Assembly (NCBI GenBank): GCA_964501035.1
Contig: CAZCRK010000014.1
Coordinates: forward strand, 1 to 32,955
Direction: 5' to 3'
DNA length: 32,955 nt
Shown here one piece after another: positions 1,277-30,362 of the stretch (position 1 is its first letter; each line of letters opens with the position of its first letter). Under the pieces are notes generated by a model. That model was not told the DNA's origin and did no database searches. It was given only the letters and a program-made list of their open reading frames with translations. A program made the position numbers and the translations under genes.

Positions 1277-3499
1277 TTAACGTAACAACACCATTCTATG
1301 AGTAAATACATCGGTGGATGATTGATATTTATAAATATATATACCTGATGAAACAGGGTTGCCATTATTATCATTACCATCCCACACCACAGAGTAGTTT
1401 CCTCTTGTAAAATATTTATTAGTCAAAGTTTTAACTTTTTGACCACGAATATCATACACAGTTAACTCAATATTATCGTTATTTAAAACATCAAATTTGA
1501 TTGTTGTTTCTGGATTAAATGGATTTGGGAAATTTTGAGATAAAGCATTTGCTTCTGGTAATGCAATTTCATCGTTATCCACAGTATCAGAAAAGTTTGA
1601 GTTTTCTTCACCCGGTGTACCAAAGTTTAAAATCACACCATCTTCATCATATAAAAGCCAGCTTTCCGCATTGGAAGAAGCCCAATTTGCCGGGTCACTG
1701 TTATCAGAATGAGGGTCTGCTAATTCAAGAGCATGCCCACGATTATCATTGCCTGTAGCCCAAGTTTCAGAATCATAACTAATTGCATCCACTTCATTTC
1801 CATCTGCATCAAACAATGCAATATCATCTGAAGACGTACTAAAACTTACATCCGCAAATACACTATTGGGGATATCTTCACCTGCATATAATTCATCACC
1901 ATTTTCATCAAAAAATGGATCTTCACCTGCAATAAGTAGGTATCCACCAGCTGATATAGTTCCTGATGCAATAATACCATCTTCATCATTAATTGACCAA
2001 CCTGAAACATCAACATCCTCGCTTCCACCATTATACAATTCAACATAGTCTGGTACCGATGTACCTAAAGCAGATCTGAAGAAAAATTCATTAATTACTA
2101 TATCATAGGTTGGTCCAACTGTAATTTCAGAAACTGAGGTTAAAATTTGACCGTAGGTTCCATCACCTGTTGAGAATGTAAGGTTGACATCATATTCCAT
2201 TTCTTCAGAAGCATCCCATACTTTTGCAACAATATCATTTCCTGAAACATAACCAGCTAACTGAGGTCCTGCAAATTCACACATATCAACTGAACCAACA
2301 GCTACCAATTCTAGTTGTGTACCTGACCATGTTCCTGCACCTACTAATACTTCACCGTTATATGATCCATCACAATCTTCATTTTGGGCGGTGATACCAT
2401 TTGCATCAAATAATCCAATTTCATCACCTACTTCAAGTACGGTTATACTTTCTTCAAAAATAATGAGTGACGATTCGCCGGTTTCAGCAATATCAACAAC
2501 AAAATGTGGTTCTTGAAAATATACTTCGGATACAGATGTTAGAATTGCACCATATGTTCCATCTCCCATGGAATAATCAAGAGTTACAGTATACTCCATT
2601 TGCTCAGATACATCCCACACTTTTGCTAATATGTTGTTTCCATCAACATAACCAGCAAGTTGAGAACCACCAAATTCACATAAATCAACAGAACCAATAG
2701 TAACCAAGTCTAATTGAGAGCCATCCCATACACCTGCACCCACTAGTACTTCACCATTATAGGACCCATCACAGGCGTCATTTGCTTCTGTAATACCATT
2801 TGCATCAAATAAGGCAATTTCATCTCCTGCTTCTAAAGTTGTAATTCCATCTTCAAAAATTATAAGTGATGATTCACCGGTATTTGGTAAATCCATTGTA
2901 TAATGTGCTTGACAACTTGTCCCGTCTCCACCACAAACACCACACTCATCTTCAATGTTTCCATCACAATCACAAGCACCATCTGCAATATATTCACAAT
3001 CACCGTCTGCACCATAGTTACATGCAGTGTCATCTTCACACGTAGTTGGTGTACTAATTACCAATGGAGTTCCTAAATCAACAACCAAAGCCTCTCCATT
3101 TGCATCCGAAATAGTGGCAGAAGAAAAGTAAATTTCGCCATCAGTTCCTGTAAAACTTGCATCAACAAATATTAAAGAATGGTCTCCTGCTGGTATTACT
3201 TCCCCACTCATTGAAAATCCTAAAACAAGACCTCCTTCATTTGTTGAAATCATATAGCCTGCATCTTCGGATGCACCACCAGATGCACCTGAAACTGCAA
3301 AATCTGCAAATGTAGAATCTGCAGTAGCATCTAAATCAAATTGAAATCCGCCTACATCCACTGTGTTTGACATAGTAACTTCAATTAATCCACCTGTATA
3401 ATTATCTACTTGTAAAAACACATCTTGTGCAATCACAACAGAAAACAACCCAAGTAATGACGCCACAAATACAGTTATTTTATTTTTAACAATAGACAT
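1277..3499 (-). CDS. Secreted multidomain protein: cohesin-like N-domain, Cys-rich linker, two tandem ~130-aa domains, lamin-tail domain, T9SS type A/FlgD-Ig-like C-terminal domain
   Basis: Signal peptide ending VIA-Q; IEVTMSNTVDVGGFQFDL...VLGFSMSGEVIPAG...ISDANG (cohesin-like); CDCDGNIEDECGVCGGDG; IVINEF...DYVELYNGG...GTPGEENS (LTD); QNFPNPFNPETTIKF...WDG...SSGIYIY (CTD); AGGAG RBS. Confidence 0.8.
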   Translation of the reverse strand: MSIVKNKITVFVASLLGLFSVVIAQDVFLQVDNYTGGLIEVTMSNTVDVGGFQFDLDATADSTFADFAVSGASGGASEDAGYMISTNEGGLVLGFSMSGEVIPAGDHSLIFVDASFTGTDGEIYFSSATISDANGEALVVDLGTPLVISTPTTCEDDTACNYGADGDCEYIADGACDCDGNIEDECGVCGGDGTSCQAHYTMDLPNTGESSLIIFEDGITTLEAGDEIALFDANGITEANDACDGSYNGEVLVGAGVWDGSQLDLVTIGSVDLCEFGGSQLAGYVDGNNILAKVWDVSEQMEYTVTLDYSMGDGTYGAILTSVSEVYFQEPHFVVDIAETGESSLIIFEESITVLEVGDEIGLFDANGITAQNEDCDGSYNGEVLVGAGTWSGTQLELVAVGSVDMCEFAGPQLAGYVSGNDIVAKVWDASEEMEYDVNLTFSTGDGTYGQILTSVSEITVGPTYDIVINEFFFRSALGTSVPDYVELYNGGSEDVDVSGWSINDEDGIIASGTISAGGYLLIAGEDPFFDENGDELYAGEDIPNSVFADVSFSTSSDDIALFDADGNEVDAISYDSETWATGNDNRGHALELADPHSDNSDPANWASSNAESWLLYDEDGVILNFGTPGEENSNFSDTVDNDEIALPEANALSQNFPNPFNPETTIKFDVLNNDNIELTVYDIRGQKVKTLTNKYFTRGNYSVVWDGNDNNGNPVSSGIYIYKYQSSTDVFTHRMVLLR
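2123..2905 (-). repeat. Intragenic tandem duplication of a ~130-aa domain (about 2522-2905 and 2123-2506)
   Basis: Both copies contain TGESSLIIFE...GDEI.LFDANGIT...CDGSYNGEVLVGAG.W...GSVD.CEF.G.QLAGYV.GN.I.AKVWD...GDGTYG.ILTSVSE. Confidence 0.95.
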
Positions 3500-3655
3500 C
3501 CCATTTCTCCTTTTAATTAAATAAAATTATCCACACAACAAAGGGCAAAACTAAGAAGTAACCCACCCCCATTCCAAATATAATATTCAGAAATTCTAAC
3601 ACAATAATTTAAATTGAATTTATAATACTATAATGTAACATGTTGTAAAATTACA

Positions 3656-6530: not shown

Positions 6531-6584
6531 GTGTAAATTTACTATGATGAATTACTTGAATAATAACAAAAGCTATGGAATCTA

Positions 6585-8697: not shown

Positions 8698-8738
8698 CTT
8701 AATCAAAAATTAATATTTCTAAAATACCAACTTAATAC
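8698..8738 (+). promoter_or_regulatory. Candidate Pho box: four 8-mers at 11-bp periodicity
   Basis: CTTAATCA-aaa-ATTAATAT-ttc-TAAAATAC-caa-CTTAATAC immediately upstream of the Na/Pi symporter gene. Confidence 0.6.
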
Positions 8739-8784
8739 AGAAATCCTAAATTGCTAGCTTTAAAAAAGGATTAATTTGGTTTAA

Positions 8785-10550: not shown

Positions 10551-10573
10551 ATTTTGTTGATATAACGATGTAC

Positions 10574-12250: not shown

Positions 12251-12967
12251 TTATTTAATCTTTATATAATCTATGTATGCTTTTGATTTTTCACCTGTAT
12301 TGTCGGTATCAGTCATTATTGCTAAGCTAGCTTTTTTTGGAGGGTCTTCGCCAAATGCAAGCCTATAATCCTTCAGGATATTTACTTGTTCAATCAACCA
12401 TTTGTTTGCATTTTCGTTTCCTGATTCAACAATAAACATTTGAGCTTTTTCTGTAAATGGGTTCGATAGAAAATTAACTTTATGATTTTTATTTGCCCAT
12501 ATATAATTCAAACTACTCATTGGAGGATACTCACCGTATAACAGTTTTAGAGATTCATACATTATAGATTCAAGAAATCCAGCTCTTTTTGCATCATATT
12601 CAAATATTATATAAATTCTAAGTGCATAGTCATCACCAGATTTTTTTCGTGCATTTCCTTTTTCAAGGATGTTTTCAATTTTCCAAGACCATTCAATTTC
12701 AGGAGTTTCAAATGGGTTAAATGTATTTTTCCAAATTAATCCAGATGCAGATGAATCACTTATTGCCATTAGTACATTGCTATTTTCGTTTTCAATTATA
12801 GAGTATTGAGACCATCTATCAATTTTATTAAAATGGAGAGGTTTCCATTGATCAAGATTGTCGAAATCTTCCAAAAAGAAATTTTGACCAAATAAAAATG
12901 AACTAGCTATAACTAATAGGGGAGTAACAAAAAAAATTCTTAAACAGAAAATTCTAATTATTTTCAC
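12251..12967 (-). CDS. DUF3047-family exported protein
   Basis: Hydrophobic N-terminus; WSWK, KSGDDYALRIYI.F, LNYIWAN, DYRLAFGEDPP and IMTDTDNTG motifs. Confidence 0.8.
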   Translation of the reverse strand: MKIIRIFCLRIFFVTPLLVIASSFLFGQNFFLEDFDNLDQWKPLHFNKIDRWSQYSIIENENSNVLMAISDSSASGLIWKNTFNPFETPEIEWSWKIENILEKGNARKKSGDDYALRIYIIFEYDAKRAGFLESIMYESLKLLYGEYPPMSSLNYIWANKNHKVNFLSNPFTEKAQMFIVESGNENANKWLIEQVNILKDYRLAFGEDPPKKASLAIMTDTDNTGEKSKAYIDYIKIK

Positions 12968-14516
12968 TTATGATTACATTTACTAGCAAAACTATATCTA
13001 GTACATCTAATGCACCATCAGAGTTTAAATCACCAGCATCAAATTCTAAAGAACTTGGAGAGTCAATTATTACTACAAAATTTACCAAAATGACTATATC
13101 TTGAACATTAATTGTACCATCATTATTTAAATCGCCAGATAAATAGGATTCATTTTCTTCAGATAAAACAGATGCAGCATTATAAATATTTAGCCTACCA
13201 CCGCTAACGGTTATTGATTCTAAACTGGGGAGAATATCTACAGTTTCAAACATCGTATCTCGAATAAATATTGCGGTACCTGCAGGGTCATCTTTGTATT
13301 GTTGAGCAATTTCTTGTGAAGCAGCAGAGTGTAATAAACCAATTGCACCAGCTACATGGGGAGTTGCCATTGAAGTTCCTGTATATGAACAGCTAACACC
13401 ATTTCCATTTACTGTACTGCAAATACTTGTTCCTGGAGCACCTAAATCAATAGTTTCAGCGCCATATCCTGCATTTCCATACTTTTCATCCATTCGATTT
13501 GTATTTGTTACTGATACCATGTATTCACTTGAGCAACCGGTTGGAACATCACCAATATTGTCCACATTTTGATTGCCATTAATTGTTGCAGCGGCACTTA
13601 ATATTCCTACTTCCCCCATCGAATTGTATAAATCATTCCACACTGGATATTGCCCAGAATTACAGTTCGCATAATCAATTCCAAAACTACTATTAGTAGC
13701 AACAACATTTGCTCCAAATTCACCATCAGATTCCAAGTACAACGATTTTTGGTCCAAAACATATCCATAAGCAATGCTTACAACCGATGTTGAACTGGTT
13801 GAGCCTGCTATAGCCATTATTTTTACATCCCAGTTCACACCTACTACATCAGTAGAATTATCCCCCTTTGCGCCAATTGTACCAGAAACATGTGTTCCAT
13901 GATTATTTGAAGGGATACTACTATCATTTGAATATGCATCCCAACCATTCACATCATCAACATAACCATTGTTGTCATCATCAATACCATTTCCAGGAAT
14001 TTCATTTTCATTAACCCAAATATTATCGACCAAATCTTCGTGATTAATATCTACTCCACCATCAATAACTGCCACTACAATTTCTTCACCAAGAGCCGTC
14101 AATCCTCCTGTTGTAATATCCCAAGCTTCTGGGGCATCAATATCTGCATCTGCAACTGATCCTGCCCCACCTTCATTATGCATATCCCACATTTGGGGGA
14201 AAATTGGATCGTTCGGAAATAATCTTTCATTCACTTTATGATCAAATTGTGCATATATAATTTCATCCATTTTTCTGAGTTCAGAAAGTGCAATATCCAA
14301 GTTTTCATATCGATTATCTTCAAGTTTGACAAGATAAATATTTAGTTTTCGAACTAATTTTTTATCCAAAGAAAACCCGAAATCAGATAATAAACTTTTT
14401 ACATTTCCAATTTGATACTTTGGATTAACTTTGGCAATAAATTGATCTTCAATGACTGTATCTAAATTAACAGCAAGTAACGTGGTAATATACAATGTAA
14501 CTAAAATTTTCTTCAT
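12954..14516 (-). CDS. Secreted S8 (subtilisin-like) serine protease with C-terminal dockerin-like domain
   Basis: Signal peptide and prodomain; catalytic triad VIDGG / HGTHVSG / GTSMATPHVAG; C-terminal duplicated GDLN.DG...V.DIV motif. Confidence 0.92.
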   Translation of the reverse strand: MKKILVTLYITTLLAVNLDTVIEDQFIAKVNPKYQIGNVKSLLSDFGFSLDKKLVRKLNIYLVKLEDNRYENLDIALSELRKMDEIIYAQFDHKVNERLFPNDPIFPQMWDMHNEGGAGSVADADIDAPEAWDITTGGLTALGEEIVVAVIDGGVDINHEDLVDNIWVNENEIPGNGIDDDNNGYVDDVNGWDAYSNDSSIPSNNHGTHVSGTIGAKGDNSTDVVGVNWDVKIMAIAGSTSSTSVVSIAYGYVLDQKSLYLESDGEFGANVVATNSSFGIDYANCNSGQYPVWNDLYNSMGEVGILSAAATINGNQNVDNIGDVPTGCSSEYMVSVTNTNRMDEKYGNAGYGAETIDLGAPGTSICSTVNGNGVSCSYTGTSMATPHVAGAIGLLHSAASQEIAQQYKDDPAGTAIFIRDTMFETVDILPSLESITVSGGRLNIYNAASVLSEENESYLSGDLNNDGTINVQDIVILVNFVVIIDSPSSLEFDAGDLNSDGALDVLDIVLLVNVIISENN

Positions 14517-15653: not shown

Positions 15654-17357
15654 CTACCGTTTTATTCGCAAACCCTTATCTTCATTAATAAAAATCCACG
15701 ATGCAATTTTGCCAATATCAAATGAATTGTCAATATCCCAATATTGAATCCCATGATGGTATCGTGAACTTGAATCGTCCGTTGGCAATGAATCAACTTC
15801 TGAAAGAATTTGTCTAATTCTATGTTGCCATAATGCAATATTTGTTTCGCGTAAATCTACCCATCCAGCATAGGTCCATTTTTCCATTTCTGTACTATTC
15901 AAATCAATTGATGAACGTCCCAATTGTGTTGGTATTTTAACCACAGGACCACGGAGTATTTTATCACCATCAGCAAGTAAAATTGGAAGACCAATAGAAA
16001 TTATTTGAGATCTAATCTGGCTATTTTCTGCAATTTCATCATTTAACTTTTGAGTTAATTCTTCTGGTGTAAATTCAAGAATTTGCTTCATATTTTCACA
16101 TACTAATTTTAACAAATGTGCTTCATACAAAATTTTGGAAAGTCTTGGTGGCCCCAAAATCTCAAAAGCAACAGATTCTATATTGTTTTCTTTTTGTAGT
16201 TGTTTCATCTCTTTAATTGCTTGATGACGCATATACCCAGCTCTATAGGTGGGGCCTATAATTGCATTATCAAGAGCATTAATGATATCACGTCCGGTAT
16301 TATCTCCTTGAATTTCCATTATACTATTCGTGGCAATTTCTTCAGGAGTTACAAATTCCATTTGACCTGTTGATGTTATGGTTTCAAATTCGCCAAGTGA
16401 AAAAGTACCATTTTCACCCGTATCAATAAAAACAGATTTTAGAGTTTCACCGGTGTCTGTCCAATTACAGTTGCCCAGAAAATTAAATTCATTTTTAAGT
16501 AATTCTGCATCTTTCAAATCACAATCGAACAACTGAATAGCTTGACCATGTTTTTTTATCTCTCCACACCCAATTTTCTTCCAAGCAATTGCTGCTGCAG
16601 GTTTAATTTCTTTTACAATGGGCCCTTCTGGGGTCCTTCCCATTAAAAAGAGCAATAATGTATGAGCACCAGCAAGCGATGTTTTACTCAATAAAACTCT
16701 AGATGGTCTTTCTTCACTATGGGTATAGGGTATGTTAAGTCCCATTCCACCTGTACCAGTAGTGCCAATTTTTAAGTAAACACCTGTTTTATTTTCAACC
16801 ATACTTGCATGTAAAATTTGAATATGTCGTATAAGTTGAGGAATATACAAAGTTGTTAACATCCTTTCAATTTCTGATGTTAACCCTTCGGTTAAATTGT
16901 TATCTGTTTGGGCTTTGTTTAACTCCTGTTTTATGTTATAATAACCATTGTAAATATCTTGATAAGCCAATCCAGTCGCAGAATTAACCGAATCAATAAT
17001 CACATCGGGTTTATGTCTAGATATCACTTGGTTTAAAAACGATGATTCCATAACATGTTCATCAAATGCTTCCATGGCATCTTGCAAAAGAGATTGCCGG
17101 TGATTGCTATCTCCCATAATTTCAGAACGAGGTAAATCTTTCAAGCTTTCTCGAACAAAAATATTTCCCCATTCTGGTGTTAATGTAACACTGGGAGCTT
17201 CTTTTTTTAATTCTTCACAAGCTGATTTTGCTTCATGTTCTTGAAGTGAGAGTATGATTACTTCCTTAGGTTTGTGTACTACTAGCTTTCTAAGGATTGC
17301 CATTCCAACAAGACCCCATCCACCTAAAATCAGTATTTTTTTATCTGTAATATCCAT
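15654..17357 (-). CDS. Uncharacterised 567-aa NAD(P)-binding (Rossmann/SDR-like) oxidoreductase
   Basis: N-terminal ILILGGWGLVG dinucleotide-binding motif; PDVIIDSVN; GTTGTGGMGLNIPYTHSEERPS; GAGG RBS inside the upstream ptb. Confidence 0.65.
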   Translation of the reverse strand: MDITDKKILILGGWGLVGMAILRKLVVHKPKEVIILSLQEHEAKSACEELKKEAPSVTLTPEWGNIFVRESLKDLPRSEIMGDSNHRQSLLQDAMEAFDEHVMESSFLNQVISRHKPDVIIDSVNSATGLAYQDIYNGYYNIKQELNKAQTDNNLTEGLTSEIERMLTTLYIPQLIRHIQILHASMVENKTGVYLKIGTTGTGGMGLNIPYTHSEERPSRVLLSKTSLAGAHTLLLFLMGRTPEGPIVKEIKPAAAIAWKKIGCGEIKKHGQAIQLFDCDLKDAELLKNEFNFLGNCNWTDTGETLKSVFIDTGENGTFSLGEFETITSTGQMEFVTPEEIATNSIMEIQGDNTGRDIINALDNAIIGPTYRAGYMRHQAIKEMKQLQKENNIESVAFEILGPPRLSKILYEAHLLKLVCENMKQILEFTPEELTQKLNDEIAENSQIRSQIISIGLPILLADGDKILRGPVVKIPTQLGRSSIDLNSTEMEKWTYAGWVDLRETNIALWQHRIRQILSEVDSLPTDDSSSRYHHGIQYWDIDNSFDIGKIASWIFINEDKGLRIKR

Positions 17358-18189
17358 TTCTACCTCTTTTGAGCATCATCAAACTTAATGCTATTGAATT
17401 TAATTTTGTATCAATTATATCTGAGCGTGATAGTAAAACAATAGGGCATTTTGCACCCAAAATAATTCCGCCACCTTTGGATCCACCAAGGGACATCAAC
17501 GCTTTTACAATCATGTTTGATGCAGAAATTGATGGACCAATTAATACATCTGCTTCCCCAGAAATATGTGAGTGAATTCCTTTTTTCACAGATGCGTCTT
17601 GTGAAATAGCAATATCTAATGAAACTGGACCTTCGATATTAAACTCTTTGTGGTGTATGTAATTATTGCAAACTGAATATGCTAATTCCGTTTCAGGTAA
17701 TTTAGATGTCACTTTTTCCACTAAAGACAACAGAGCAATATTAGGCTTATCTATTTGCAATTGTTTACTTAACTCCAAACTGTTTTCTAATATCGACCCC
17801 ATGGTTTGTTCATCTAAGTGGGTGTTTACCCCTCCATCAGTAATTAACAAAAGTTTGTGGTACGTTGGTGACTCAACAACTGCAATATGTGATAATAATC
17901 TGTTTGTTTTTATTCCTTGTTCTGGTTTCAGCACTGCTTGTAGTAAAGTAGCGGTATCAACATCACCTTTCATGAGTAGCTGACAATCACCATTTCTAAC
18001 TGCATTTACAGCATTTTTAGAAGCTACTTCACTACTGCTGTGAGAAAATGAAATTGGTTCAATCCAACCCAGTTTAGTAGCTTCAAGTAAAGCAGTATTA
18101 ATATAATCACTGTTTGGATTTACAACAGCTAACCGAACAGATTTTGAATTTTCTAGTTGGGAATAAATGTTAGAATATGATATTATCAT
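17341..18189 (-). CDS. ptb: Phosphate butyryltransferase / phosphate acyltransferase (probable start 18189)
   Basis: LMKGDVDT..LL.AVL, LLSHIAV, TDGGVN, EGPVSLDIAIS and PIVLLSRSD motifs; ATGA overlap with the buk stop. Confidence 0.85.
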   Translation of the reverse strand: MIISYSNIYSQLENSKSVRLAVVNPNSDYINTALLEATKLGWIEPISFSHSSSEVASKNAVNAVRNGDCQLLMKGDVDTATLLQAVLKPEQGIKTNRLLSHIAVVESPTYHKLLLITDGGVNTHLDEQTMGSILENSLELSKQLQIDKPNIALLSLVEKVTSKLPETELAYSVCNNYIHHKEFNIEGPVSLDIAISQDASVKKGIHSHISGEADVLIGPSISASNMIVKALMSLGGSKGGGIILGAKCPIVLLSRSDIIDTKLNSIALSLMMLKRGRNGYYR

Positions 18190-19241
18190 GCTTGGTATGT
18201 TTTGCAAATATCAGGATTGTTTAACACGGCTAACCCACCTTCTACAAGTGCTTCTAGTTCAAATGAACCCGGGTACACAAAAATATTGGATATAAACGAA
18301 TTTTTCTGTTTTATCAATGATACAAAATTATCTGAATTACATAATCCCCCGGTCAAAATTAAACCTTCAATGTGACCATTTAAAGAAGCATACATGCCTC
18401 CTATTTCTTTTGTTATTTGATAAACCATTGCATTATATATCAATTTTGCTTGTTGATTTGATTCAATTTTGTTTTCTACTTGTCGTAAATCTCGAGTATT
18501 TATATATCCCATTAGTCCACTATTTTTTGACAATAATTCTTTTAATTCTGCTTCTTTTAACTTCTTTTTGAATACTAAATCAATTAGCCCTTGTAAAGGA
18601 ATTGAACCAGCGCGTTCAATTGAAAATGGTCCCATTCCTAACAAGGCATCATTCACATCAATAATTTTACTTTGGTTTACGGATGCAATAGAAAACCCAC
18701 TTCCCAAATGAGCTACAACAAATTTTCCGGAATTAATTGGGATATCTAATTCATTTTCTGTTTTTCTGACGCAATATTTTATGTTTAAAGCATGACTTCT
18801 ACTTTTTCGCTCTATTTTGGGAACACCAGATATTCGTGCCTCTGGAATAAAATCATCACTCGTTACTGGGTCAATTATAAACGATGGACATTGAAACATT
18901 GTTGAAATTCTTTCTGCTAAAATAGCACCTAAATTTGATGCATGATTTGAATATTTTTCAGAACGATAGTCAGAAAGCATCTCATTATTGATAGAATATA
19001 TCCCAGATGCTAATGGTTTAAGAGGCCCCCCTCTGCCGACAACACAATCTAATTGAGAAATTTCTTTTAAATGTGGAGCAATTAAGGAAAATCTGTATTG
19101 CTCTTGATATGATGGAATACGCGATAGTTTATCGTTAGTATGATCAATCTCTTCTCGCCAAATTTCAATATTATTTTCAAAATATCCAAATTCGGTACTT
19201 GTTGATCCTGGATTAATGGCTAAACAAAAGAAGGCGAACCT
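18186..19241 (-). CDS. buk: Butyrate (branched-chain carboxylate) kinase; the homologous frame extends well upstream of the annotated ATG, with no canonical start codon
   Basis: The open frame from 19241 reads RFAFFCLAINPGSTSTE...VVGRGGPLKPLASGIY...HASNLGA...IDPV...HALNIK...VAHLGSG.S...GPFSIERAG...ILTGG (about 351 codons). Confidence 0.85.
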   Translation of the reverse strand, partial: RFAFFCLAINPGSTSTEFGYFENNIEIWREEIDHTNDKLSRIPSYQEQYRFSLIAPHLKEISQLDCVVGRGGPLKPLASGIYSINNEMLSDYRSEKYSNHASNLGAILAERISTMFQCPSFIIDPVTSDDFIPEARISGVPKIERKSRSHALNIKYCVRKTENELDIPINSGKFVVAHLGSGFSIASVNQSKIIDVNDALLGMGPFSIERAGSIPLQGLIDLVFKKKLKEAELKELLSKNSGLMGYINTRDLRQVENKIESNQQAKLIYNAMVYQITKEIGGMYASLNGHIEGLILTGGLCNSDNFVSLIKQKNSFISNIFVYPGSFELEALVEGGLAVLNNPDICKTYQA

Positions 19242-19499
19242 CTAAAATTCTTCAGAAAATGAAGACATAATGCCCTCAGAGCAAAAATGATTTGCCCTAC
19301 ATTCTTCTAATTTTTCCTTTAACGTATTATAATGTTCAATTTCCATGGATGCTAATTTAAGCAAAAACCGTTTCATATCTGGATCAGCAATTCGCTCAGA
19401 TGCTTCCATATAGTAATCGTAGGCGTCTTTTTCCTCTTGAATAGCATACTGAAGTATTTCTTCAATCGTACTAAATTCTGGAATATGAGCATGTGTCAT
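19242..19499 (-). CDS. Short ferritin-like / rubrerythrin-family protein (single helix pair)
   Basis: AIQEEKDAYDYY...LASMEIEH (E...ExxH iron-ligand pattern); strong AGGAGG RBS. Confidence 0.8.
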   Translation of the reverse strand: MTHAHIPEFSTIEEILQYAIQEEKDAYDYYMEASERIADPDMKRFLLKLASMEIEHYNTLKEKLEECRANHFCSEGIMSSFSEEF

Positions 19500-20061: not shown

Positions 20062-20063
20062 TT

Positions 20064-21934: not shown

Positions 21935-21935
21935 T

Positions 21936-22382: not shown

Positions 22383-25190
22383 CTAACTAACTATATAATT
22401 CACAATTGAAATTATATCGAGGATATTAATAATGGAATCACCATTCACATCAGAGGCACAAGCTTCAGATGGGTTTGGTTCGTTTACATCCATGATGAAG
22501 TTAATAATTGTTATAATATCTAAAATATTAATAATGGAATCACTATTTACATCCATAACTGTGCATGAAACATCATTTGGTGAATCGGTTGTGAATTTAA
22601 TAGCAAAATTAGATACAATTCCATTGTCCATAGGCCATGAAGCGCCCAATGCAGTTTCTAAATTAAACAAATATTCAACACCTTCATTTTGATCGGGTGA
22701 TTCAATACCAATTGTAGAATAATTTCCATTGGCATCTATATCGTGAATTTCTTTATACTGAAACACAATTTCACCATCACCAGTTGAAGTTGGGTATTGA
22801 GCAGGATCCAATAATATCATTTGAAATGTTTCTTTGATACAATCTGGACAATTTTGATCATCTTCACCATTTGACACATTGTCCCATTCAACAATAAATC
22901 GTCCATTTTCAAAATCATTCCATGCGTATACATTAAACGGTTCAGTACCATCATTATCATCCAAATCATCTAAAAATGGTGCAATCATAGCATTTGGACC
23001 CATTGGGTTTGGAATAGAAAAATTCCAAAAATAATTTATAGGGCAGGTTTCAAAAGAAGCCCAACCATTTGAACATACTGTCATTGTGCTGTAAGTTTCG
23101 CCAAAATATGTAAACTCAAACCCTATTTCTACATCATCAATATGAGTGTCATCGGTTAAGTTTAAATTCGTTCCAATTTCATTTATTTCTACCCAATCAT
23201 AACTTGGTGCTTCGGTATAATCTGAATCAAAACTATCATAAGCCCAATATCCATATTCACTAGGAGGGGTTGGATCTGAATCAGAATAACTACTTTCATT
23301 AGATCCGACAATAATTGTAAAATAATTTTCAAAAATATCTGCATTTTCACAATTGTATTCTATTTCAAAATTTATTATACTTCCAGCAGAAATTGAGTTA
23401 ACAACCGATGCAGATAATACTGAATTTAAACTGCTATAATTAAAAGGTGAAATTGAAACTGTTTGTGGGAATACTGAAACATTTTCTAGTTCACTTCCAT
23501 AGTAATTAATTGAAATTGTAGCATCATCAATTTGATATGGAGAATTATTGATAATGTCTAAACTTAGTTCAAATTCTTGCCCGGGTTCAAGAAATGATTC
23601 ACCTGTATTAATTGTGTGCATTATATCTAAATATGTTTCAATGACAGGGTTAAACACTGACCCATCATCTTCAATAAAAGTTAACTCAATTTTCTTTTGA
23701 TAAAATTGTGCTTTGTTTAAGTACAATTCAAGAGAACTTCCAGCTGATATTCCATCAAAATCAATATATAACATACCTTCAGAGTTTGAAACTCCCTTAC
23801 CGATTAATTCACCATTTACTAATAGTGCTCCAACTACGTCTGACATTGATTCACCATCTTCATTTGTAATTGTTGTTGAAATATACGATTGATGTAAATT
23901 AGTTGAATTTTCGATATCAGAAATTAAGTGTTGAGGTTCTGTTAAAAATACTGGAATACTGGGGTCTCCAATTACACCGTACACATGATGGTAAAACTCG
24001 TCAATTACGGTACCATCTGGGGCTGATAACCCAGCAAACTCATCAATTAATGCATGTTTTCCTGCATGTAAAGCTGGTGCTAATTCAGTTGCATCACCCT
24101 CTAAAAGAGCATCCCACATGACTCCACATATTAAATTATTAAATCGAGTATCTGTATCCAAGTCAGATGGACCCACCATAGCAGCCGCACCTTTTGGGTT
24201 TGTAATCGAGCCTGCAGTCGTCATTGTTTCACCATAACATTTATCAAGACCAGGGCCGCTATAGTTGTTTCCAAAATCACCAGTATTGCAAACAAAACTT
24301 AAAACGATAGGTAGCTTCCAACCATTGTTTAAATCTTCCACATTTTCTCTGTGAAAATAAGGTTTGTGCCAACCATTTGCATCACCCCATCCACGATAAT
24401 TTATTACACCTACCCCGCTTGACCACACACTGGAAAGTAAAGGGTTATATGATCCCTCTTGCCAATTTCCTGCATGAAAAAATACCGTATCAATATTTGA
24501 ATAACCAAAATTTGATAATTCATCATAAAGCCATAATGATGTCCAGACAGGAGTAACTGGCCACTGAGACGGATCAACTTCTGTGCCATCAGCAGTGCTA
24601 TAGTTTCCAGCCGTTAGCAATGCATCGTTCAAATGCGAAACATCATCAATATTATCCATCCGAACATATTGAATACTTCTATTTTTAATTTTTAGAAAAT
24701 CTTGAATACCGCTTATAGACCATCTGCCTAAAAAGAATCGTGGGTTATATACATCATCATTAAAAAAAGTATATGGATAATCGGTTACATCAATATCGTC
24801 TTCATTATATGAATCAACAGTGAATGTTGGAATTTCATAGGCACCATTTACATCACCGACCAAAAGAACATATTCTAACATAGGATTATTATTAGAGTAA
24901 TACTCTAAATATTGTTTGAGGTAATTCGCAGTTCCACCAATTTCATTTAAATAAACTATTTCAACATCATATCCTTGGCTTTTCTTAAAGGACACAAAGT
25001 CACCACCATACGTTTCATTAGTTAGATAAATATCTAAGCTATTATCTGGTAGTACAATCAAGTATGTTCCACGTTGGTAATTAAAATCTCTATCTTCAGT
25101 ATTAAATGTACGTTGAGATATTGGTTTAGTATTATTTGCTATAAGCAAAGAAAATACACTAATTAAAATAATCTTACTAAAAAACTTCAT
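22383..25190 (-). CDS. Secreted C25 (gingipain-like) peptidase-family protein with C-terminal dockerin-like domain
   Basis: Signal peptide; YLIV, KKSQGYDV, EYVLLVGD, TDYPY, LGRWS, INYRGWG, LPIVLSFVCNTGDF and GDPS motifs; C-terminal duplicated DVN.DS.INILDI. Confidence 0.85.
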   Translation of the reverse strand: MKFFSKIILISVFSLLIANNTKPISQRTFNTEDRDFNYQRGTYLIVLPDNSLDIYLTNETYGGDFVSFKKSQGYDVEIVYLNEIGGTANYLKQYLEYYSNNNPMLEYVLLVGDVNGAYEIPTFTVDSYNEDDIDVTDYPYTFFNDDVYNPRFFLGRWSISGIQDFLKIKNRSIQYVRMDNIDDVSHLNDALLTAGNYSTADGTEVDPSQWPVTPVWTSLWLYDELSNFGYSNIDTVFFHAGNWQEGSYNPLLSSVWSSGVGVINYRGWGDANGWHKPYFHRENVEDLNNGWKLPIVLSFVCNTGDFGNNYSGPGLDKCYGETMTTAGSITNPKGAAAMVGPSDLDTDTRFNNLICGVMWDALLEGDATELAPALHAGKHALIDEFAGLSAPDGTVIDEFYHHVYGVIGDPSIPVFLTEPQHLISDIENSTNLHQSYISTTITNEDGESMSDVVGALLVNGELIGKGVSNSEGMLYIDFDGISAGSSLELYLNKAQFYQKKIELTFIEDDGSVFNPVIETYLDIMHTINTGESFLEPGQEFELSLDIINNSPYQIDDATISINYYGSELENVSVFPQTVSISPFNYSSLNSVLSASVVNSISAGSIINFEIEYNCENADIFENYFTIIVGSNESSYSDSDPTPPSEYGYWAYDSFDSDYTEAPSYDWVEINEIGTNLNLTDDTHIDDVEIGFEFTYFGETYSTMTVCSNGWASFETCPINYFWNFSIPNPMGPNAMIAPFLDDLDDNDGTEPFNVYAWNDFENGRFIVEWDNVSNGEDDQNCPDCIKETFQMILLDPAQYPTSTGDGEIVFQYKEIHDIDANGNYSTIGIESPDQNEGVEYLFNLETALGASWPMDNGIVSNFAIKFTTDSPNDVSCTVMDVNSDSIINILDIITIINFIMDVNEPNPSEACASDVNGDSIINILDIISIVNYIVS

Positions 25191-25191
25191 T

Positions 25192-27444
25192 TTACTCCAT
25201 AATTATCAAATTTACTACACTAATTATATCCAAAATATTGATTATACTGTCTTCGATTAAATCAGAAGTACACTGCTCAAATCCATTCAGTTGAACATCA
25301 TCAATTATATGGTTTACAATTTTTAATATATCAAGAACGTTGATTTCGCCATTTCTATCAATATCACCACCTACACATTCACCATCTGGTTCATACAGGA
25401 TGGTCATTTTATCCATTTTTAAACCACGATACCCCAATGTTGCATCTGAATTTAATTTTATATCTAACCAAGATGAATCCAATGAGCTAACTTCAACGGG
25501 AAAACTTTCATTATAATTAATCCATTCATGCCATTTATGGGATGAAAATTCAGCAATATATGTTGTATCATTTAATGAATTCAATATCAACTCAACATTA
25601 TCATTTTCCCATTCTAATTCATACCCTAAGTCAAATTCAAAAACTGTATGCCCTTCCCAATGTTTTACAATTGGAATATCATAAGATAATAAATAGTTCG
25701 CTTCATTATCATACACCAAACTGCTTTGAGAATATAAAACCCCTTCTTCAAACAACCAATCACCCGATTCTACTGTCCAGTTATCTGAAAAATCAAAATT
25801 TTCTTCAATATATACAGCTGACCATTTCATGTTTACATGTATTTCTGTATCCGATTCTAAATTTATACTATCAAAATATGGTAACATGTTCTCTGATTCA
25901 ATGACAAAGTCATAACTTCCAGTTGGTAAAGAAACTTCAAACCCATTTTGGGTTAAATCATAAGTTAACTTATGATTTAAAGTGGTTAACTTTATTGAAT
26001 TTTCACTGTTATATGTTATCGGCAAGCTGACATTTACAGTCAAATTATATTCAGGTAATTTTGTTAAATTAATATCATGCTCTGTTATCGAGCCATTTGA
26101 TGGTACAAATGTATAAGAATATGGCTCATAAACATTTTTAGAATTTATAGTTAAGGTATAGGTTGCATCGTGTAACAATCGACGATAACGACCAAATTCA
26201 TCTGTAGTTCTTTGTGTTAACATGGGACCATTTAACTCTTCAATCACAACTTCAATTCCACTTAGTGGCAACCCTGTTTCAGCATCTGTAATTGTACCAG
26301 TAATTTGATTTTTGTCAGGTCCATCTTGATAATTGGAACCAGCTGCACGTTTCAATAGGTGGAATGCACCCACCAAATTTCGCTCAACAGTATCATCAAT
26401 AACTGCAACATCAATTGCTTGTAAGTTTTCAGTTCCAGTTTCAATTAAATATTGAATACAACCCGTATTAACATATAGCCAATCATGAGCATTCCCTCGT
26501 CTTGATACACTATTTGTTGGCTGATAATTTCCACTTTCTGCTTCCTTGGGAATCAGTTGAGCAATTTCTTCGCCTAATTGTGCAATTACCGGATAATCTG
26601 GTGATGGTTTATCACCATCCCACAACCAAGGATAAATAACTTTTTCAGACACACAACCTGACCGTGAACTATGATATGCGATTGATAATAAGAAATTTTG
26701 GTCTAACACAAAATCTTTAATTGCTGCCGTTTCAGTTTCAGAAAAAGCGTATTCACCACGATAGTAGTCATAATTTGCAATATATGATGGGTTTCCAGAA
26801 CAACCACCATCCGTTTGTCCTTCAGCATCTCCAAAAATCCAATTGAAATCATAGTTTCGATTCAAATCAACCCCATCTAAATCATTTCCAATTCCAACTA
26901 CATAATCAAAAATTCCATTTTCATTGACATCACGTTTATTTTTTCGGTATGCTGTATCGTGGAGTAACTCCTCATGATCATAATACCCATGTACCATTCT
27001 CAAGCCTTCAGGATTATATGTTGGAATTACCCATATTTCGGTATTTTCCATAAAGGCTTTTAGATTAAAGTAGCTTGTAGGGAACTCAACAGGGTGCAAT
27101 AAACGATAAATTAATTCCATCGCTATTTCAACACCATAAATCTCCTCAGCATGACATTGACCTAAAATCAAAACTCTTGGTTGATCTTCTTTGACATCGG
27201 CATTAAATGATAATCGTACACCATAAAATGGAAGATGATCATGCGTTGATACACCTATTTCTTCCATATGATAAATAATACCACTTTCAGGATAATATGT
27301 TGGATAGGGTTCGAAATTACTTCCAAACTCTTCATCCCATGCTTCAAGTTGAGCTTGAATTTCTTCATATGTATGATACCTATCCGGAAGCTCTACTTGC
27401 CCCCAGAGAACCATAAAAAATAGTATGAAAATAACGAAACGCAT
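25192..27444 (-). CDS. Secreted M14 zinc carboxypeptidase with carboxypeptidase-regulatory-like domain and C-terminal dockerin-like domain
   Basis: HAEE (HxxE) zinc motif, RKN, GVDLNRNY, AYHS, IETG (catalytic Glu); ITGTITDAETGLPL; C-terminal GDIDRNGEINVLDI...DLIEDSIINILDI. Confidence 0.9.
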   Translation of the reverse strand: MRFVIFILFFMVLWGQVELPDRYHTYEEIQAQLEAWDEEFGSNFEPYPTYYPESGIIYHMEEIGVSTHDHLPFYGVRLSFNADVKEDQPRVLILGQCHAEEIYGVEIAMELIYRLLHPVEFPTSYFNLKAFMENTEIWVIPTYNPEGLRMVHGYYDHEELLHDTAYRKNKRDVNENGIFDYVVGIGNDLDGVDLNRNYDFNWIFGDAEGQTDGGCSGNPSYIANYDYYRGEYAFSETETAAIKDFVLDQNFLLSIAYHSSRSGCVSEKVIYPWLWDGDKPSPDYPVIAQLGEEIAQLIPKEAESGNYQPTNSVSRRGNAHDWLYVNTGCIQYLIETGTENLQAIDVAVIDDTVERNLVGAFHLLKRAAGSNYQDGPDKNQITGTITDAETGLPLSGIEVVIEELNGPMLTQRTTDEFGRYRRLLHDATYTLTINSKNVYEPYSYTFVPSNGSITEHDINLTKLPEYNLTVNVSLPITYNSENSIKLTTLNHKLTYDLTQNGFEVSLPTGSYDFVIESENMLPYFDSINLESDTEIHVNMKWSAVYIEENFDFSDNWTVESGDWLFEEGVLYSQSSLVYDNEANYLLSYDIPIVKHWEGHTVFEFDLGYELEWENDNVELILNSLNDTTYIAEFSSHKWHEWINYNESFPVEVSSLDSSWLDIKLNSDATLGYRGLKMDKMTILYEPDGECVGGDIDRNGEINVLDILKIVNHIIDDVQLNGFEQCTSDLIEDSIINILDIISVVNLIIME

Positions 27445-27446
27445 AT

Positions 27447-30362
27447 TTATGAAATTATATAATTAACTATTGAAACAATATCAAGCACATTTGTTACACC
27501 ATCAGCATTCACATCAGCAGCACAGGATTCTTCTGGCGTCGGATTATGATTGTCTAGGATGATATTTACAAGTAGTACGACATCTAACACATTTATCACG
27601 CTATCGCTATTGACATCCATTGCAGTACATGCATCACCTAGAGTAACTGATTGGATATAAATATTTTTCAAATCTTCTTTACCAGAACTTCTCATATCAT
27701 CCCAATAAATCATATACGAGTTATCCGTTTCAGAATAAAGGTCAATCTTTGGATTAAACTGGTTGAAATCTGCATCACACACAACTATCCCACCATTTTC
27801 AAACTCAAAACTATTATCATAAATTTCTTGGTAGAATATATCAAATGCAATCCCTAAACGAGAATCTTCCCATGCTATCATATATGTTCCGTCTTCACTT
27901 GTAAATGCATTTGGTGTCTTTTGATTACCTACATCATTTGAAATGATGATATCTTCACTCACTACCAAAGTTTCAATATTGACAGTTTTACAATACACAT
28001 CATAATCAGCACCAGACCTGAAATCTTCCCAACATACCAACACTTCACCCTCTACTTCATTATATGTAATCGTTGCAGATGTTTGATCATTTACATCAAC
28101 TGCGATTGGAATTCCATCTGGGTCGCCAACTAGATCACCTGAAAAATTAACAAACTGTCCATAAATATCTGCCCAACCTGATCGTTGGTCTTTCCATATT
28201 ACAAAAACACCTTCGTCAGTTTTGACGGATCCTTCTATAAATTGGTCACTATCTACATCCGTCAAATTCACTCCACTACCCCATGATTCAATTACATTTC
28301 CATCAGAATCCATTGCAATTGCCATAACAGAGCTTTCGCCACCACTTTCCGTGTTAAATGAAATAAAGCAACCACCACTTGGTAGTGCTTCTACTGTTTT
28401 AACATTGTCATCAATAAAAAAGTTACTTGCTACCAATACCGGTTCATCCCACTGGGGTAATCCATCCGAATCAAATTTTTGAACAAAAATATCATAATCA
28501 ATGTAATTTCGTTGGTCAGAAAAAATATAATATACAAATCCATCATTGCCATGAACTAATTCAAATGAGCTTTGATTTGTCCAAGATTCAAATACAGGGG
28601 TCCCTTCGCTATTACCAAGCATAAACAAATTTTCATCCAAAATTTGATAATATTGAACAATATCACCAAATGAATAGCCAAACCCAAGCAGAATATTTTC
28701 ATCTAACACCTCTGCTTTTGGATCAGATTGGTACGGATTGTCACTTAACTTTATTCCATTGTCTTCCGTAATTTGATTATAACTTGAATGTACTTTTTGG
28801 CCATAAGAAAGAATCTTTTGGTCTAACCCTATTCCGTCTGGGTCTTCATCCCATAATCGATTATCTTCCCAGTAAATTAAATTATTGTCATTTCCTAAGT
28901 ATAGTGATTTTGGTGAAATTGCATGACCATCTATTCCAAAATATAACTCAACTCCATTTTCAACCAAAGAAATGCCAGATTGTGGATGTAAATGTTGTGC
29001 AAACATTCCAATACTTCCAGTTCGCATATCGCCCCAAATTGCAATAGCACCACCATTACCGTCATTACGCACTAATGGATTAAATTGTTTATGATCTGCT
29101 ACACAAATTGCTTGACCGTCTGATTCAAAAGATGGGTTTCCATCAGCATCAATATGTTGCATGAAAATTTCAGTATTGGGATATGGTGCAAATCGTTCAT
29201 CCATCCACACATAATACACTCCACCTTGACCATCTGTAGTTAAACGAGGTTGATCTTGAGTGCTTGTAGCAACAGAAATTGGTTTTCCATTTTCTTCCCA
29301 AACTACTCCAGATGATATTAATTTTTGCGAGTATATATCACTATTACCATTTCTGGCATCTTCCCAAACAATATACGCTCCAGATGCATCGGCTTTAACA
29401 CGAGGTTTTAATTGAGGTGCTTCGTGTGTGCAAATTTCTAAACCATTATCTTGAAACTGGAAATTACCATCAATATCCAAAAATTGTGCATAAATATCAC
29501 CAGCTTCCTCGTTGCTTCTTTTATCTTCCCACGTAACTACTGTCGTATTATCAGAGACATACGTTACTTTTGCATATTCTTGGTTATTCATAGCATCACA
29601 AATTATTATACCACCTTCCTCTGGAGTACTCCAAAGTGTGTTTAAATCTGAGTCTATGCGTTGGCCATAAATGTTTAAATCATCAATGGTTCTATCGTCT
29701 GTCCATACCATTACAGCATGTCCAGAACCAGCAACTTCAATACTGACTCCTGTATGGTCAGAATCATTTGAAAGAAGCGGTACACCCACACCTGCTTCAA
29801 CAATATCATTTACATCTGCAGTTAAATGAGTACCGTAGATATGACCCACAGTTGAAACAGTTTTGTCCTTCCAAATTACAAACGCACCACCTTGTCCATC
29901 TGAACACATATTAGGTGAAACTTGTTTTCCTTCAACATTTGTCAAAACTACACCTTCAATTCCCCACGCTACACTACCATCAGATAGCACATGTTGACCA
30001 TAAATATCACCATGTTCAGGTTCATCACGATAGTCTACCCAGATAACAAATGCACCACCTTGTCCATCTGAAACTAAAATTGGGTCTTCTTGTCTTCCCG
30101 GTGCTAAAACTACGGCAGTTCCTTCAGAACCCCAAAGGTTGTTGCCATCTACATCTACTTTTTGAATATAGATATCTCTTCCACCAAAACGAGTATCTGA
30201 CCATGCAAAAATCATTTCGCCATTATCACCAACATCACCCGTTCGTTGCCATTCAATATGAATTCCTTGTCGAACTGGTATTCCATTATCTTGCCAATCA
30301 AATTGTGCAAATAATGAACTTGCTATAACTAATGTAGTTAAAAATTTTAATCCTAGTTTCAC
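27447..30362 (-). CDS. Secreted repeat protein (about 60-aa repeats, probably beta-propeller) with C-terminal dockerin-like domain
   Basis: Signal peptide ending LFA-Q; repeated Q..P...DGxGGA.V.W.D.R...DIY.Q motif; C-terminal DVNSDSVINVLDV...DVNADGVTNVLDI. Confidence 0.8.
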   Translation of the reverse strand: MKLGLKFLTTLVIASSLFAQFDWQDNGIPVRQGIHIEWQRTGDVGDNGEMIFAWSDTRFGGRDIYIQKVDVDGNNLWGSEGTAVVLAPGRQEDPILVSDGQGGAFVIWVDYRDEPEHGDIYGQHVLSDGSVAWGIEGVVLTNVEGKQVSPNMCSDGQGGAFVIWKDKTVSTVGHIYGTHLTADVNDIVEAGVGVPLLSNDSDHTGVSIEVAGSGHAVMVWTDDRTIDDLNIYGQRIDSDLNTLWSTPEEGGIIICDAMNNQEYAKVTYVSDNTTVVTWEDKRSNEEAGDIYAQFLDIDGNFQFQDNGLEICTHEAPQLKPRVKADASGAYIVWEDARNGNSDIYSQKLISSGVVWEENGKPISVATSTQDQPRLTTDGQGGVYYVWMDERFAPYPNTEIFMQHIDADGNPSFESDGQAICVADHKQFNPLVRNDGNGGAIAIWGDMRTGSIGMFAQHLHPQSGISLVENGVELYFGIDGHAISPKSLYLGNDNNLIYWEDNRLWDEDPDGIGLDQKILSYGQKVHSSYNQITEDNGIKLSDNPYQSDPKAEVLDENILLGFGYSFGDIVQYYQILDENLFMLGNSEGTPVFESWTNQSSFELVHGNDGFVYYIFSDQRNYIDYDIFVQKFDSDGLPQWDEPVLVASNFFIDDNVKTVEALPSGGCFISFNTESGGESSVMAIAMDSDGNVIESWGSGVNLTDVDSDQFIEGSVKTDEGVFVIWKDQRSGWADIYGQFVNFSGDLVGDPDGIPIAVDVNDQTSATITYNEVEGEVLVCWEDFRSGADYDVYCKTVNIETLVVSEDIIISNDVGNQKTPNAFTSEDGTYMIAWEDSRLGIAFDIFYQEIYDNSFEFENGGIVVCDADFNQFNPKIDLYSETDNSYMIYWDDMRSSGKEDLKNIYIQSVTLGDACTAMDVNSDSVINVLDVVLLVNIILDNHNPTPEESCAADVNADGVTNVLDIVSIVNYIIS

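Follow-up and report, generated by a model that had tools for sequence, protein, structure and literature searches.

Do the genes for four dockerin-tagged secreted proteins and one cohesin-like surface protein that lie on a single short bacterial contig specify a self-contained extracellular complex, or do they belong to something larger? The contig in question, referred to below as the window, comprises 32,955 nucleotides (positions 1 to 32,955 of CAZCRK010000014.1, assembly GCA_964501035.1; ~33% GC) and represents contig C14 of a 1.87-Mb genome (G000; 167 contigs, 95.7% complete, 1.33% contaminated). An earlier note had interpreted it as the locus of a cellulosome-like complex for protein degradation, with the cohesin-like protein P0001 as its scaffold. 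Our analysis indicates that the kind of system was identified correctly, that its scope was drawn too narrowly and that P0001 was assigned as the scaffold with too much confidence: the five genes are probably parts of a cohesin-dockerin system that extends over the whole genome, and the lineage, of a marine bacterium equipped with a type IX secretion system (T9SS).

Dockerins and a cohesin in the window

The five key proteins (P0001, the S8, C25 and M14 peptidases and a repeat protein) are encoded by open reading frames (ORFs) on the minus strand. Together with an associated lipoprotein gene and the modules of P0001, they occupy the following positions:

12954..14516, minus strand: S8 subtilase (Peptidase_S8, E 3e-28) with a C-terminal dockerin (12960-13157) without flanking cysteines
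22383..25190, minus strand: C25 gingipain-family peptidase (Peptidase_C25, E 7e-44) with a NIDO-like region and a C-terminal dockerin of the paired-cysteine type (22386-22577); last gene of a four-gene operon
25192..27444, minus strand: M14 carboxypeptidase (Peptidase_M14, E 1e-35) that also contains a CarboxypepD_reg domain and ends in a dockerin (25195-25389) with a degenerate second Ca loop
27447..30362, minus strand: 971-amino-acid protein with ~55-residue 'W-x-D-x-R...DIY-x-Q' repeats and a C-terminal dockerin (27450-27641)
30370..32715, minus strand: putative lipoprotein of 781 amino acids with an LSC motif; first gene of the operon, 7 nucleotides upstream of the repeat-protein gene
1277..3499, minus strand: P0001, 740 amino acids, predicted from its translation and Pfam matches to be a T9SS-sorted surface protein with a single cohesin
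3053..3424, minus strand: residues 26-149 of P0001, a cohesin module belonging to a short 'GGFQF...A-x-GG' subtype missed by the Pfam Cohesin model
2114..2911, minus strand: two tandem, unnamed beta-sandwich modules of ~133 residues in P0001 (residues 197-330 and 331-462), without Pfam match
1289..1531, minus strand: type-A C-terminal sorting domain (CTD) of P0001 for the T9SS (PF18962, 27.9 bits; cut-off 27)

All four peptidase and repeat proteins end in the duplicated dockerin-type module that the earlier note had described. As read from the sequence, each dockerin consists of two tandem segments of ~22 residues, each comprising a Dx[ND]xD-type Ca loop and a helix, and ends 0-2 residues before the stop codon; in an alignment of 62 dockerins, D9, D13, D20, D43, N45, D47 and D54 are invariant or nearly so. 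The Pfam model Dockerin_1 (PF00404; cut-off 22.9 bits) recognizes the tails of the S8 peptidase (28.5 bits), the C25 peptidase (32.4 bits) and the repeat protein (41.2 bits). The M14 tail, with a regular first segment and a degenerate second loop (DLIEDS), stays below the cut-off at 18.4 bits (E 0.0025). However, it scores 49.3 bits (E 3.7e-14) with a profile built from the genome's own dockerins and thus belongs to the same family. As judged by eye, the N-termini of the four proteins open with a short charged part that leads into a hydrophobic segment, and Pfam detects no Por_Secre_tail in any of them, in agreement with the claim that they lack a T9SS-type CTD. The genes for the lipoprotein, the repeat protein, the M14 peptidase and the C25 peptidase form the operon, in this order, with gaps of 7, 2 and 1 nucleotides. 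Pfam finds neither a known domain nor a dockerin in the putative lipoprotein, and the repeat protein is suspected to fold into a propeller.

P0001 comprises an N-terminal signal-like segment, the cohesin module, a cysteine-rich linker, the two beta-sandwich repeats, a lamin-tail domain (LTD; residues 464-575, E 2e-17) and a type-A T9SS CTD, which is covered by Por_Secre_tail (residues 657-737) and was recovered at the same place by a whole-genome scan; FlgD_ig (PF13860) also matches (E 2.6e-10). The sorting domain that had been postulated for this protein is thus present. The cohesin-like nature of its N-terminal domain was less obvious, and one result speaks directly against it: the first 197 residues match no Pfam family, cohesin (PF00963) included, even at E<=10. 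Likewise, a precomputed PF00963 annotation is attached to just one of the 17 homologues that the protein collection contains for this region. Of the two Pfam comparisons suggested beforehand, that of the C-termini with Dockerin_1 was therefore positive in three of four cases, and that of the N-domain with Cohesin yielded nothing. Nevertheless, a phmmer search with residues 25-150 connects the domain to modules of a second, much larger protein of the same genome (P0009; E 2.7e-29), including one of canonical cohesin type (E 2.8e-7), and a profile of 35 genome modules (alignment A1) retrieves the Ruminococcus flavefaciens cohesin 5n5p_A (E 5e-4) as its sole PDB sequence match at E<=0.01. The AlphaFold2 model of the module (pLDDT 97.1, pTM 0.89) points in the same direction. 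Among the 38 Foldseek matches listed from the PDB (ranks 1-49), 37 are cohesins or cohesin-like proteins and one (rank 43) is a cellulose-binding domain. The top match is the non-cellulosomal cohesin 2xdh of Archaeoglobus fulgidus (E 4.5e-6, TMq 0.67, 15% identity), and the best matches (TMq ~0.6-0.72) include the partners from solved cohesin-dockerin complexes (1ohz, 2vn5, 5nrk). On the strength of these profile links and predicted fold matches, the N-domain of P0001 is a cohesin, so that the missing Pfam match is no evidence against this assignment.

The remainder of P0001 has features of its own. The cysteine-rich linker (~2920-3050, minus strand), with the pattern C-x-D-x-x-A-C-N-[YF] ... 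C-G-V-C-G-G, follows not only the cohesin of P0001 but also each of the three N-terminal cohesins of P0009, and may constitute a disulfide-knotted spacer or a metal site. The middle repeat is modelled as a confident beta-sandwich (AlphaFold2 pLDDT 89.5) without any Foldseek match in the PDB at E<=1e-3. A relationship to the N-domain of lipoxygenases was considered and rejected, as the best VIA-align result (Z 6.7, root-mean-square deviation 4.1 A, 104 aligned residues) lies within the range expected by chance for sandwiches. At 40-60% identity, this ~133-residue repeat is among the commonest modules in giant proteins of the order (genomes G001-G036), with no clear solved relative. P0001 has a paralogue on contig C21 of the same genome (63% identity) and full-length or nearly full-length relatives in the genomes G001 (62%) and G025 (48%). 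A search of other genome contigs that left out the lineage of the window returned four loci, which match the T9SS tail only.

Extent of the repertoire in the genome and its relatives

The Pfam Cohesin model yields four matches in three proteins of G000, whereas an iterated profile seeded with P0001 recovers all four of them and identifies a total of 35 modules in 18 ORFs (E<=1e-5). Because the ends of contigs C19 and C9 (L082, L086) carry the same sequence, as evident from identical alignment rows, one module is counted twice, and ~34 modules in ~17 proteins is the better figure. These numbers represent a lower bound, since contig ends truncate at least nine of the cohesin ORFs. The two overlapping ends probably join into a single gene for a protein of ~1,000 amino acids with two cohesins and a T9SS tail. 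Four modules each are found in ORFs on contigs C55, C87 and C130, and six in P0009 (at least 2177 amino acids; L071:2-6532, minus strand), which starts with three P0001-like modules, each with a cysteine-rich linker, continues with long cysteine-rich and Fn3-like repeats and ends with three canonical-type cohesins. P0007 (251 amino acids) combines a signal peptide, a cohesin and a T9SS CTD, and P0008 (539 amino acids) a cohesin, LRR and a dockerin; altogether, both modules occur in five ORFs. Around 20 of the 35 modules belong to the short 'GGFQF...A-x-GG' subtype (~105-125 amino acids) and the rest are longer, so that, by sequence, the cohesins appear to fall into at least two types. The Pfam model gives no match in the cohesin proteins encoded on C55, C87, C130, C21 and C19. 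As most cohesins of G000 escape it (4 versus ~34 modules), surveys based on Pfam would miss systems of this kind.

In addition, Fn3-like segments alternate in P0009 with two long internal repeats ('MFIVCSDGSAEYEDCVGLCFNN...') that are identical almost letter for letter; these repeats stem either from a duplication in the recent past or from an artefact in the assembly of a repeat.

Dockerins are even more numerous. Dockerin_1 matches G000 62 times, with 60 matches over the cut-off, and the genome's own dockerin profile detects 64 ORFs. The genome-wide count proposed in the earlier note thus places cohesins well beyond P0001 and leaves the window with only four of ~64 dockerin genes and one of ~17 cohesin proteins, so that the window does not represent a self-contained complex. 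Taken together, dockerin and cohesin ORFs account for 8.7% of the bases of the genome. The dockerin is located at the C-terminus (six or fewer residues after it) in 48 of the 64 ORFs. In ten others, distributed over contigs C1, C2, C13, C27, C32, C43, C64, C67 and C68, it is internal, with ~170-210 residues on to the end of a T9SS tail, placing the dockerin on a surface-anchored protein in a reversal of the usual enzyme-tag arrangement.

A census of the cargo (Pfam, E<=1e-4, all 64 dockerin ORFs) reveals firm peptidase domains in 17 cases (six C25, four S8, three M14 and one each of C10, M6, M1 and trypsin-like), besides one weak S9-like match. The other domains include inhibitor-type domains (Kunitz and thyroglobulin-1), a peptidyl-arginine deiminase (PAD), CotH, four arylsulfotransferase-family proteins, a phosphatase of the purple-acid type, an esterase resembling PETase and two nucleases (Exo_endo_phos, Endonuclease_1), as well as binding-type domains (FG-GAP, PKD, LRR, LTD, MAM). 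A PNGase-F-like protein (L062:7464-9290, plus strand, contig C62) is the sole case among the 64 in which the dockerin is N-terminal (residues 46-96). In total, a catalytic domain is present in at least 28 of the 64 ORFs. Glycoside hydrolase families are represented in none of the 64 ORFs, the only trace being a sub-threshold GH43 match (21.5 bits; cut-off 32.2), and the carbohydrate-binding modules CBM2 and CBM3 give no match. The dockerin set is therefore devoid of carbohydrate-active enzymes throughout the genome, as had been noticed for the window, yet broader than the purely peptidolytic complex that had been proposed.

The dockerins also differ in their cysteines. In the 62 aligned modules, a cysteine precedes each of the two loops in 22 cases and neither loop in 26, while 14 have one or are not scorable. 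Both cysteines are present in the C25 and repeat-protein dockerins of the window and absent from that of the S8 peptidase; in the M14 dockerin, the first was scored by the script and the second is visible by eye.

To place these findings in a wider context, we considered 41 genomes of the same genus, family and order. Dockerin_1 is present in 38 of them, with 31-98 matches in each of the 24 other genomes of the family, which are 1.1-2.4 Mb in size; in one family of the order, only one of four genomes has a match. The cohesin profile (E<=1e-25) detects its target in 35 genomes, and the six genomes without a match are exactly those with 0-8 dockerin matches. Given that relatives are not independent, this co-occurrence is a pattern rather than a statistic. 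Nevertheless, both modules are found in all 24 other family genomes searched and thus represent a family-wide trait. At the level of the phylum, an E-value limit of 1e-14 proved too strict (G000 itself scored 0), leaving only first-look candidate numbers usable: these range from 105 to 183 dockerins in five of six genomes of the order, with 16 in the sixth (G026), and from 1 to 45 in 75 genomes of other orders. In G001, a genome of the same genus, the four genes of the operon keep their arrangement. Identities amount to 86% for the C25 protein, 80% for the M14 protein and 89% for the repeat protein, and the dockerins of all three are conserved, that of the C25 orthologue being nearly unchanged. 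The first position is occupied by a 504-amino-acid lipoprotein counterpart (48% identical to the 781-amino-acid protein of the window) that retains the lipobox region.

The organism is most likely a marine member of the Marinimicrobia/SAR406, judging from the labels of homologues rather than from a phylogeny. Among the best 120 homologues listed for the VorB protein encoded in the window, all seven that carry an organism label and share 69-78% identity are assigned to 'Candidatus Marinimicrobia' or 'Neomarinimicrobiota', and three labelled Bacteroidota or Ignavibacteriae follow at only 68%. The homologues of the P0001 cohesin include one labelled Marinimicrobia and several from ocean survey data. 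Moreover, operon DNA was detected at a word share of at least 0.59 in seven sequencing runs from five studies, which are labelled seawater metagenome (five), brine (one) or not at all (one); the sample from which the genome itself came may be among them.

Proposed pairing, export and function

How might such a system operate? By analogy with cellulosomes, each dockerin would bind a cohesin in a Ca-dependent manner. The enzymes, predicted to be exported via Sec and comprising, in the window, the S8 and C25 endopeptidases and the M14 carboxypeptidase, would present their C-terminal Ca-loop dockerins together with that of the repeat protein. Cohesin proteins with a T9SS tail, such as P0001, P0007 and the two-cohesin protein split between C19 and C9, would be fixed to the outer membrane, giant multi-cohesin scaffoldins would collect several enzymes at a time, and proteins with both modules would serve as adaptors. 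Tail-less scaffoldins could, in turn, be tied to the cell by the ten proteins that have a dockerin in front of a T9SS tail. The window operon would supply the C25 endopeptidase, the M14 exopeptidase and the repeat protein to this platform, with the S8 peptidase encoded separately. Docking would thereby retain endo- and exopeptidases on the surface of the cell, along with nucleases, the phosphatase and further scavenging enzymes, and the released peptides and amino acids might be taken up and fermented. The T9SS required for this arrangement is represented in G000 by SprA_N matches on contig C12 (52.9 and 28.1 bits) and by 37 CTD matches, 34 of them over the cut-off.

Several observations weigh against this picture, or at least against P0001 as the local dock, in addition to the failure of Pfam to recognize the P0001 cohesin. 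P0001 lies 9-19 kb away from the dockerin genes, behind unrelated housekeeping genes, and shares an operon with none of them; as the 1.87-Mb genome contains ~82 genes for cohesin or dockerin proteins, the presence of one in the vicinity is unsurprising. In a genome-wide system with P0001 unlinked from the dockerin genes, proximity says little about who binds whom, and better scaffoldin candidates, with four to six cohesin modules, are encoded on other contigs. When the P0001 cohesin and the C25 dockerin were modelled together, each supplied with its alignment, the score was 0.45 (runs 0.48, 0.45 and 0.42), compared with 0.01 for the best of three controls, with at least 96% of contacts shared between runs and a pLDDT of at least 79 for the partners. 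The mark that this pair passed is reached by 116 of 157 solved complexes and by two of 215 mismatched pairs, and scores of 0.60 or less were seen in only 18 of the 157 and in both passing mismatches. Moreover, since cohesin-dockerin complexes have already been solved, the pass may reflect likeness to these structures rather than binding by this particular copy. This single modelled pair thus lends weak support to an interaction between the two proteins. The truncation of at least nine cohesin ORFs leaves the architecture and anchoring of the scaffoldins incomplete, and in 23 of the 64 dockerin ORFs the dockerin is the sole domain detected, such that the overall function of the complex is only partly known. 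Finally, a T9SS tail is missing from 54 of the 64 dockerin ORFs, and among the components checked (GspK, GspL and secretins) no clear outer-membrane route for tail-less dockerin enzymes was found. The type II secretion system (T2SS) proteins GspK and GspL have no match in the 95.7% complete genome. One of its two secretins is encoded with PilM, PilN and PilO genes and the other on a 3.2-kb contig with only a sub-threshold T2SSB-like neighbour; together with three T2SSE-family ATPases, this inventory is compatible with type IV pili plus one orphan secretin, so that a T2SS is neither shown nor excluded. The surface location of the tail-less enzymes is, for this reason, an assumption.

The absence of T9SS tails from most dockerin proteins and of GspK and GspL from the genome makes it tempting to speculate that the cohesin-dockerin pairing itself serves as a hitch-hiking device for export, although we regard this as a long shot. 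Tail-less, Sec-type dockerin proteins may meet cohesin-bearing, CTD-tagged T9SS cargo in the periplasm, and the pre-formed complexes may be carried through the T9SS translocon or the dockerin proteins attached at its exit. If true, a whole secretome would be exported and anchored by means of one sorting signal on a small number of scaffold proteins, which would help to explain why small-genome marine bacteria of this order devote ~9% of their DNA to two modules.

The most serious alternative accepts the system as such and questions the role of P0001 within it. The enzymes of the window might bind other cohesins, for instance the canonical-type modules of P0009 or that of P0007, and the P0001 cohesin might take another class of dockerin, such as those ~90 residues before a T9SS tail, so that P0001 would function as an adaptor or anchor. 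The existence of ~34 cohesin modules of at least two sequence types, the different cysteine classes of dockerins (22, 26 and 14 of 62), both of which are represented in the window, the ten ORFs that combine an internal dockerin with a CTD, the lack of linkage between P0001 and the dockerin operon and the low score of the P0001-C25 model despite the near-zero control are all consistent with this possibility. Conversely, nothing assigns specificities to individual modules, and the one pair modelled did pass the mark. We therefore give this alternative a little less than even weight.

Explanations in which the display of enzymes is not the main role fare worse. An unlikely one is that the modules mainly build a structural surface layer or a matrix for the adhesion of cells to particles, based on scaffoldins and on LTD, PKD and FG-GAP domains, with peptidases as a minority cargo. 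Firm peptidase domains are indeed restricted to 17 of the 64 dockerin ORFs, many others contain binding-type domains only or none, and the scaffoldins carry Fn3-like and cysteine-rich repeats. However, at least 28 ORFs have catalytic domains (peptidases, nucleases, phosphatase, esterase, sulfotransferases, PAD, CotH and the PNGase-like protein), and adhesion and enzyme display are not mutually exclusive, as illustrated by cellulosomes, which do both. Still less probable, in our view, is that the dockerin-like tails are stand-alone Ca-binding or stabilizing modules or ligand tags and that the cohesin-like sandwiches serve other roles. The sequence pattern of dockerins (Dx[DN]xDG) is frequent among Ca-binding motifs, cohesins and dockerins without a known role are reportedly widespread outside cellulosomes, and binding in the present case is a prediction. 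Yet the two modules vary in number in parallel across the 41 genomes (with the relatives not being independent), five ORFs contain both of them, and tandem arrays of four to six cohesins are hard to explain without repeated partners.

Thus, a genome-wide system for the display of dockerin-tagged enzymes appears to be the best explanation for the five genes of the window. Marinimicrobia/SAR406 are abundant and almost wholly uncultured ocean bacteria whose feeding has been inferred mostly from gene lists. Our results raise the possibility that members of this group attack particulate or polymeric protein and other sources of organic nitrogen and phosphorus with multi-enzyme assemblies held at the cell surface. 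If so, the cellulosome principle would extend to protein degradation in the sea and to bacteria with type IX secretion.

Known systems and neighbouring genes

Clostridial cellulosomes are assembled by Gram-positive bacteria, anchored through SLH domains or sortase and dominated by glycoside hydrolases as cargo, with a CBM3 on the scaffoldin. The system described here shares with those of C. thermocellum, C. cellulolyticum and A. cellulolyticus the duplicated Ca-loop dockerin at enzyme C-termini, the cohesin beta-sandwich, the multi-cohesin scaffoldins and proteins with both modules, reminiscent of adaptors. In contrast to them, it occurs in a genome with outer-membrane T9SS genes (SprA and the 37 CTD matches), uses T9SS tails, has no glycoside hydrolase cargo and contains shorter cohesins (~105-125 amino acids in the GG subtype). 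Measured against a strict definition of the cellulosome, a multi-cohesin scaffoldin is present in the genome, outside the window, and a cargo of glycoside hydrolases for plant cell walls is absent. The A. fulgidus cohesin 2xdh, despite being the best structural match of the P0001 module, is a single archaeal module and not part of a large repertoire. For comparison of scale, an abstract on Pseudobacteroides cellulosolvens refers to its 78 cohesin modules as 'unprecedented' (PMC5590126).

The closest published case is that of Candidatus Stygibacter (Cloacimonadota), for which a cellulosome-like complex has been proposed from metagenome-assembled genomes and left untested (Williams et al. 2021, PMC8542988). 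It comprises dockerin-bearing GH18, GH57, S8 and C25 enzymes and one scaffoldin of 3,755 amino acids with cohesins, CBM2/CBM3 and a CTD, in an organism that also has VOR, phosphate butyryltransferase and butyrate kinase (PMC8542988). The two systems resemble each other in their signal-peptide enzymes with C-terminal dockerins, including S8 and C25 peptidases, in a non-catalytic tandem-cohesin scaffoldin with a T9SS-type CTD, and in being known from genomes only. They differ in that the four enzyme types and single scaffoldin reported for Ca. Stygibacter contrast with ~64 dockerin ORFs and ~17 cohesin proteins in G000, where no glycoside hydrolase is found among the dockerin ORFs and no match to CBM2/3; in addition, most cohesins belong to a subtype missed by Pfam, the phylum is a different one (as judged by labelled homologues) and the trait is family-wide. 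Another precedent, the 'planctosome' of freshwater Planctomycetes (Nemodlikiaceae), was proposed as a non-cellulolytic complex that breaks down polypeptides (Andrei et al. 2019, PMC6461901). Its model includes one anchor, one adaptor, M12B and M14 peptidases and P-domains, with anchoring ascribed to LTD (PMC6461901). In terms of domain content only, an LTD-bearing cohesin protein (P0001) and a dockerin-borne M14 peptidase are common to both. P-domains, thrombospondin repeats and M12B peptidases were not detected in P0001 or the 64 dockerin ORFs at the thresholds used, anchoring here would rely on a T9SS CTD, and the repertoire is larger by an order of magnitude.

Judging by titles and the beginnings of abstracts in the open-access literature, Williams et al. 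provide the only other example of dockerin-bearing C25 peptidases and of dockerins combined with type IX secretion. No open-access paper was found that links dockerins to Marinimicrobia, SAR406 or Marinisomatota, with subscription journals and supplements being outside the scope of this search. Relative to these known cases, the new aspects are therefore the scale of the system, the lack of glycoside hydrolase cargo and CBMs, the cohesin subtype hidden from Pfam, the lineage and the family-wide distribution, while the principle and some of the enzyme families are shared.

The remaining genes of the window are of a different nature. Those located between the P0001 and S8 genes include a CitMHS transporter, a two-component system, a Na/Pi cotransporter with PhoU, a glutamine-synthetase-like gene, an AsnC regulator and a DUF3047 gene (12251-12967, minus strand; E 1.6e-69). 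The latter shares 14 nucleotides with the 3' end of the S8-dockerin gene and is thus probably co-transcribed with it.

Two sequencing runs labelled metatranscriptomic, which were judged 'probably DNA', contain contigs of 151-240 nucleotides that match the interior of the C25, M14 and repeat-protein genes at 99% identity or more, providing at most a weak hint of their expression. Among the runs listed for the operon DNA, none is of RNA.

The operon below the C25 gene encodes subunits of a 2-oxoacid:ferredoxin oxidoreductase (OFOR), an acetate/butyrate-kinase-family protein, a PTA_PTB protein and a 567-amino-acid protein (15654-17357, minus strand), which matches no Pfam family and closes the operon. 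The fermentation operon to which the earlier note had drawn attention is therefore real, but its association with the peptidase genes is not fixed: in G001, the C25 gene is instead flanked by plus-strand ORFs of 450 and 158 amino acids at the position where the window has the oxidoreductase genes. Two details of this operon deserve mention. The kinase-family gene (18186-19241, minus strand) encodes 264 amino acids from its first ATG, with the frame remaining open for ~88 codons further upstream. This upstream part contains the stretch 'AINPGSTST', which we take to be the N-terminal motif of acetate/butyrate kinases, and as no ATG, GTG or TTG precedes it, either translation starts at an unusual codon or the sequence contains an error. 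Between this gene and that for the OFOR gamma subunit lies an ORF of 85 amino acids (19242-19499, minus strand), whose product is helical-looking and rich in E and Y.

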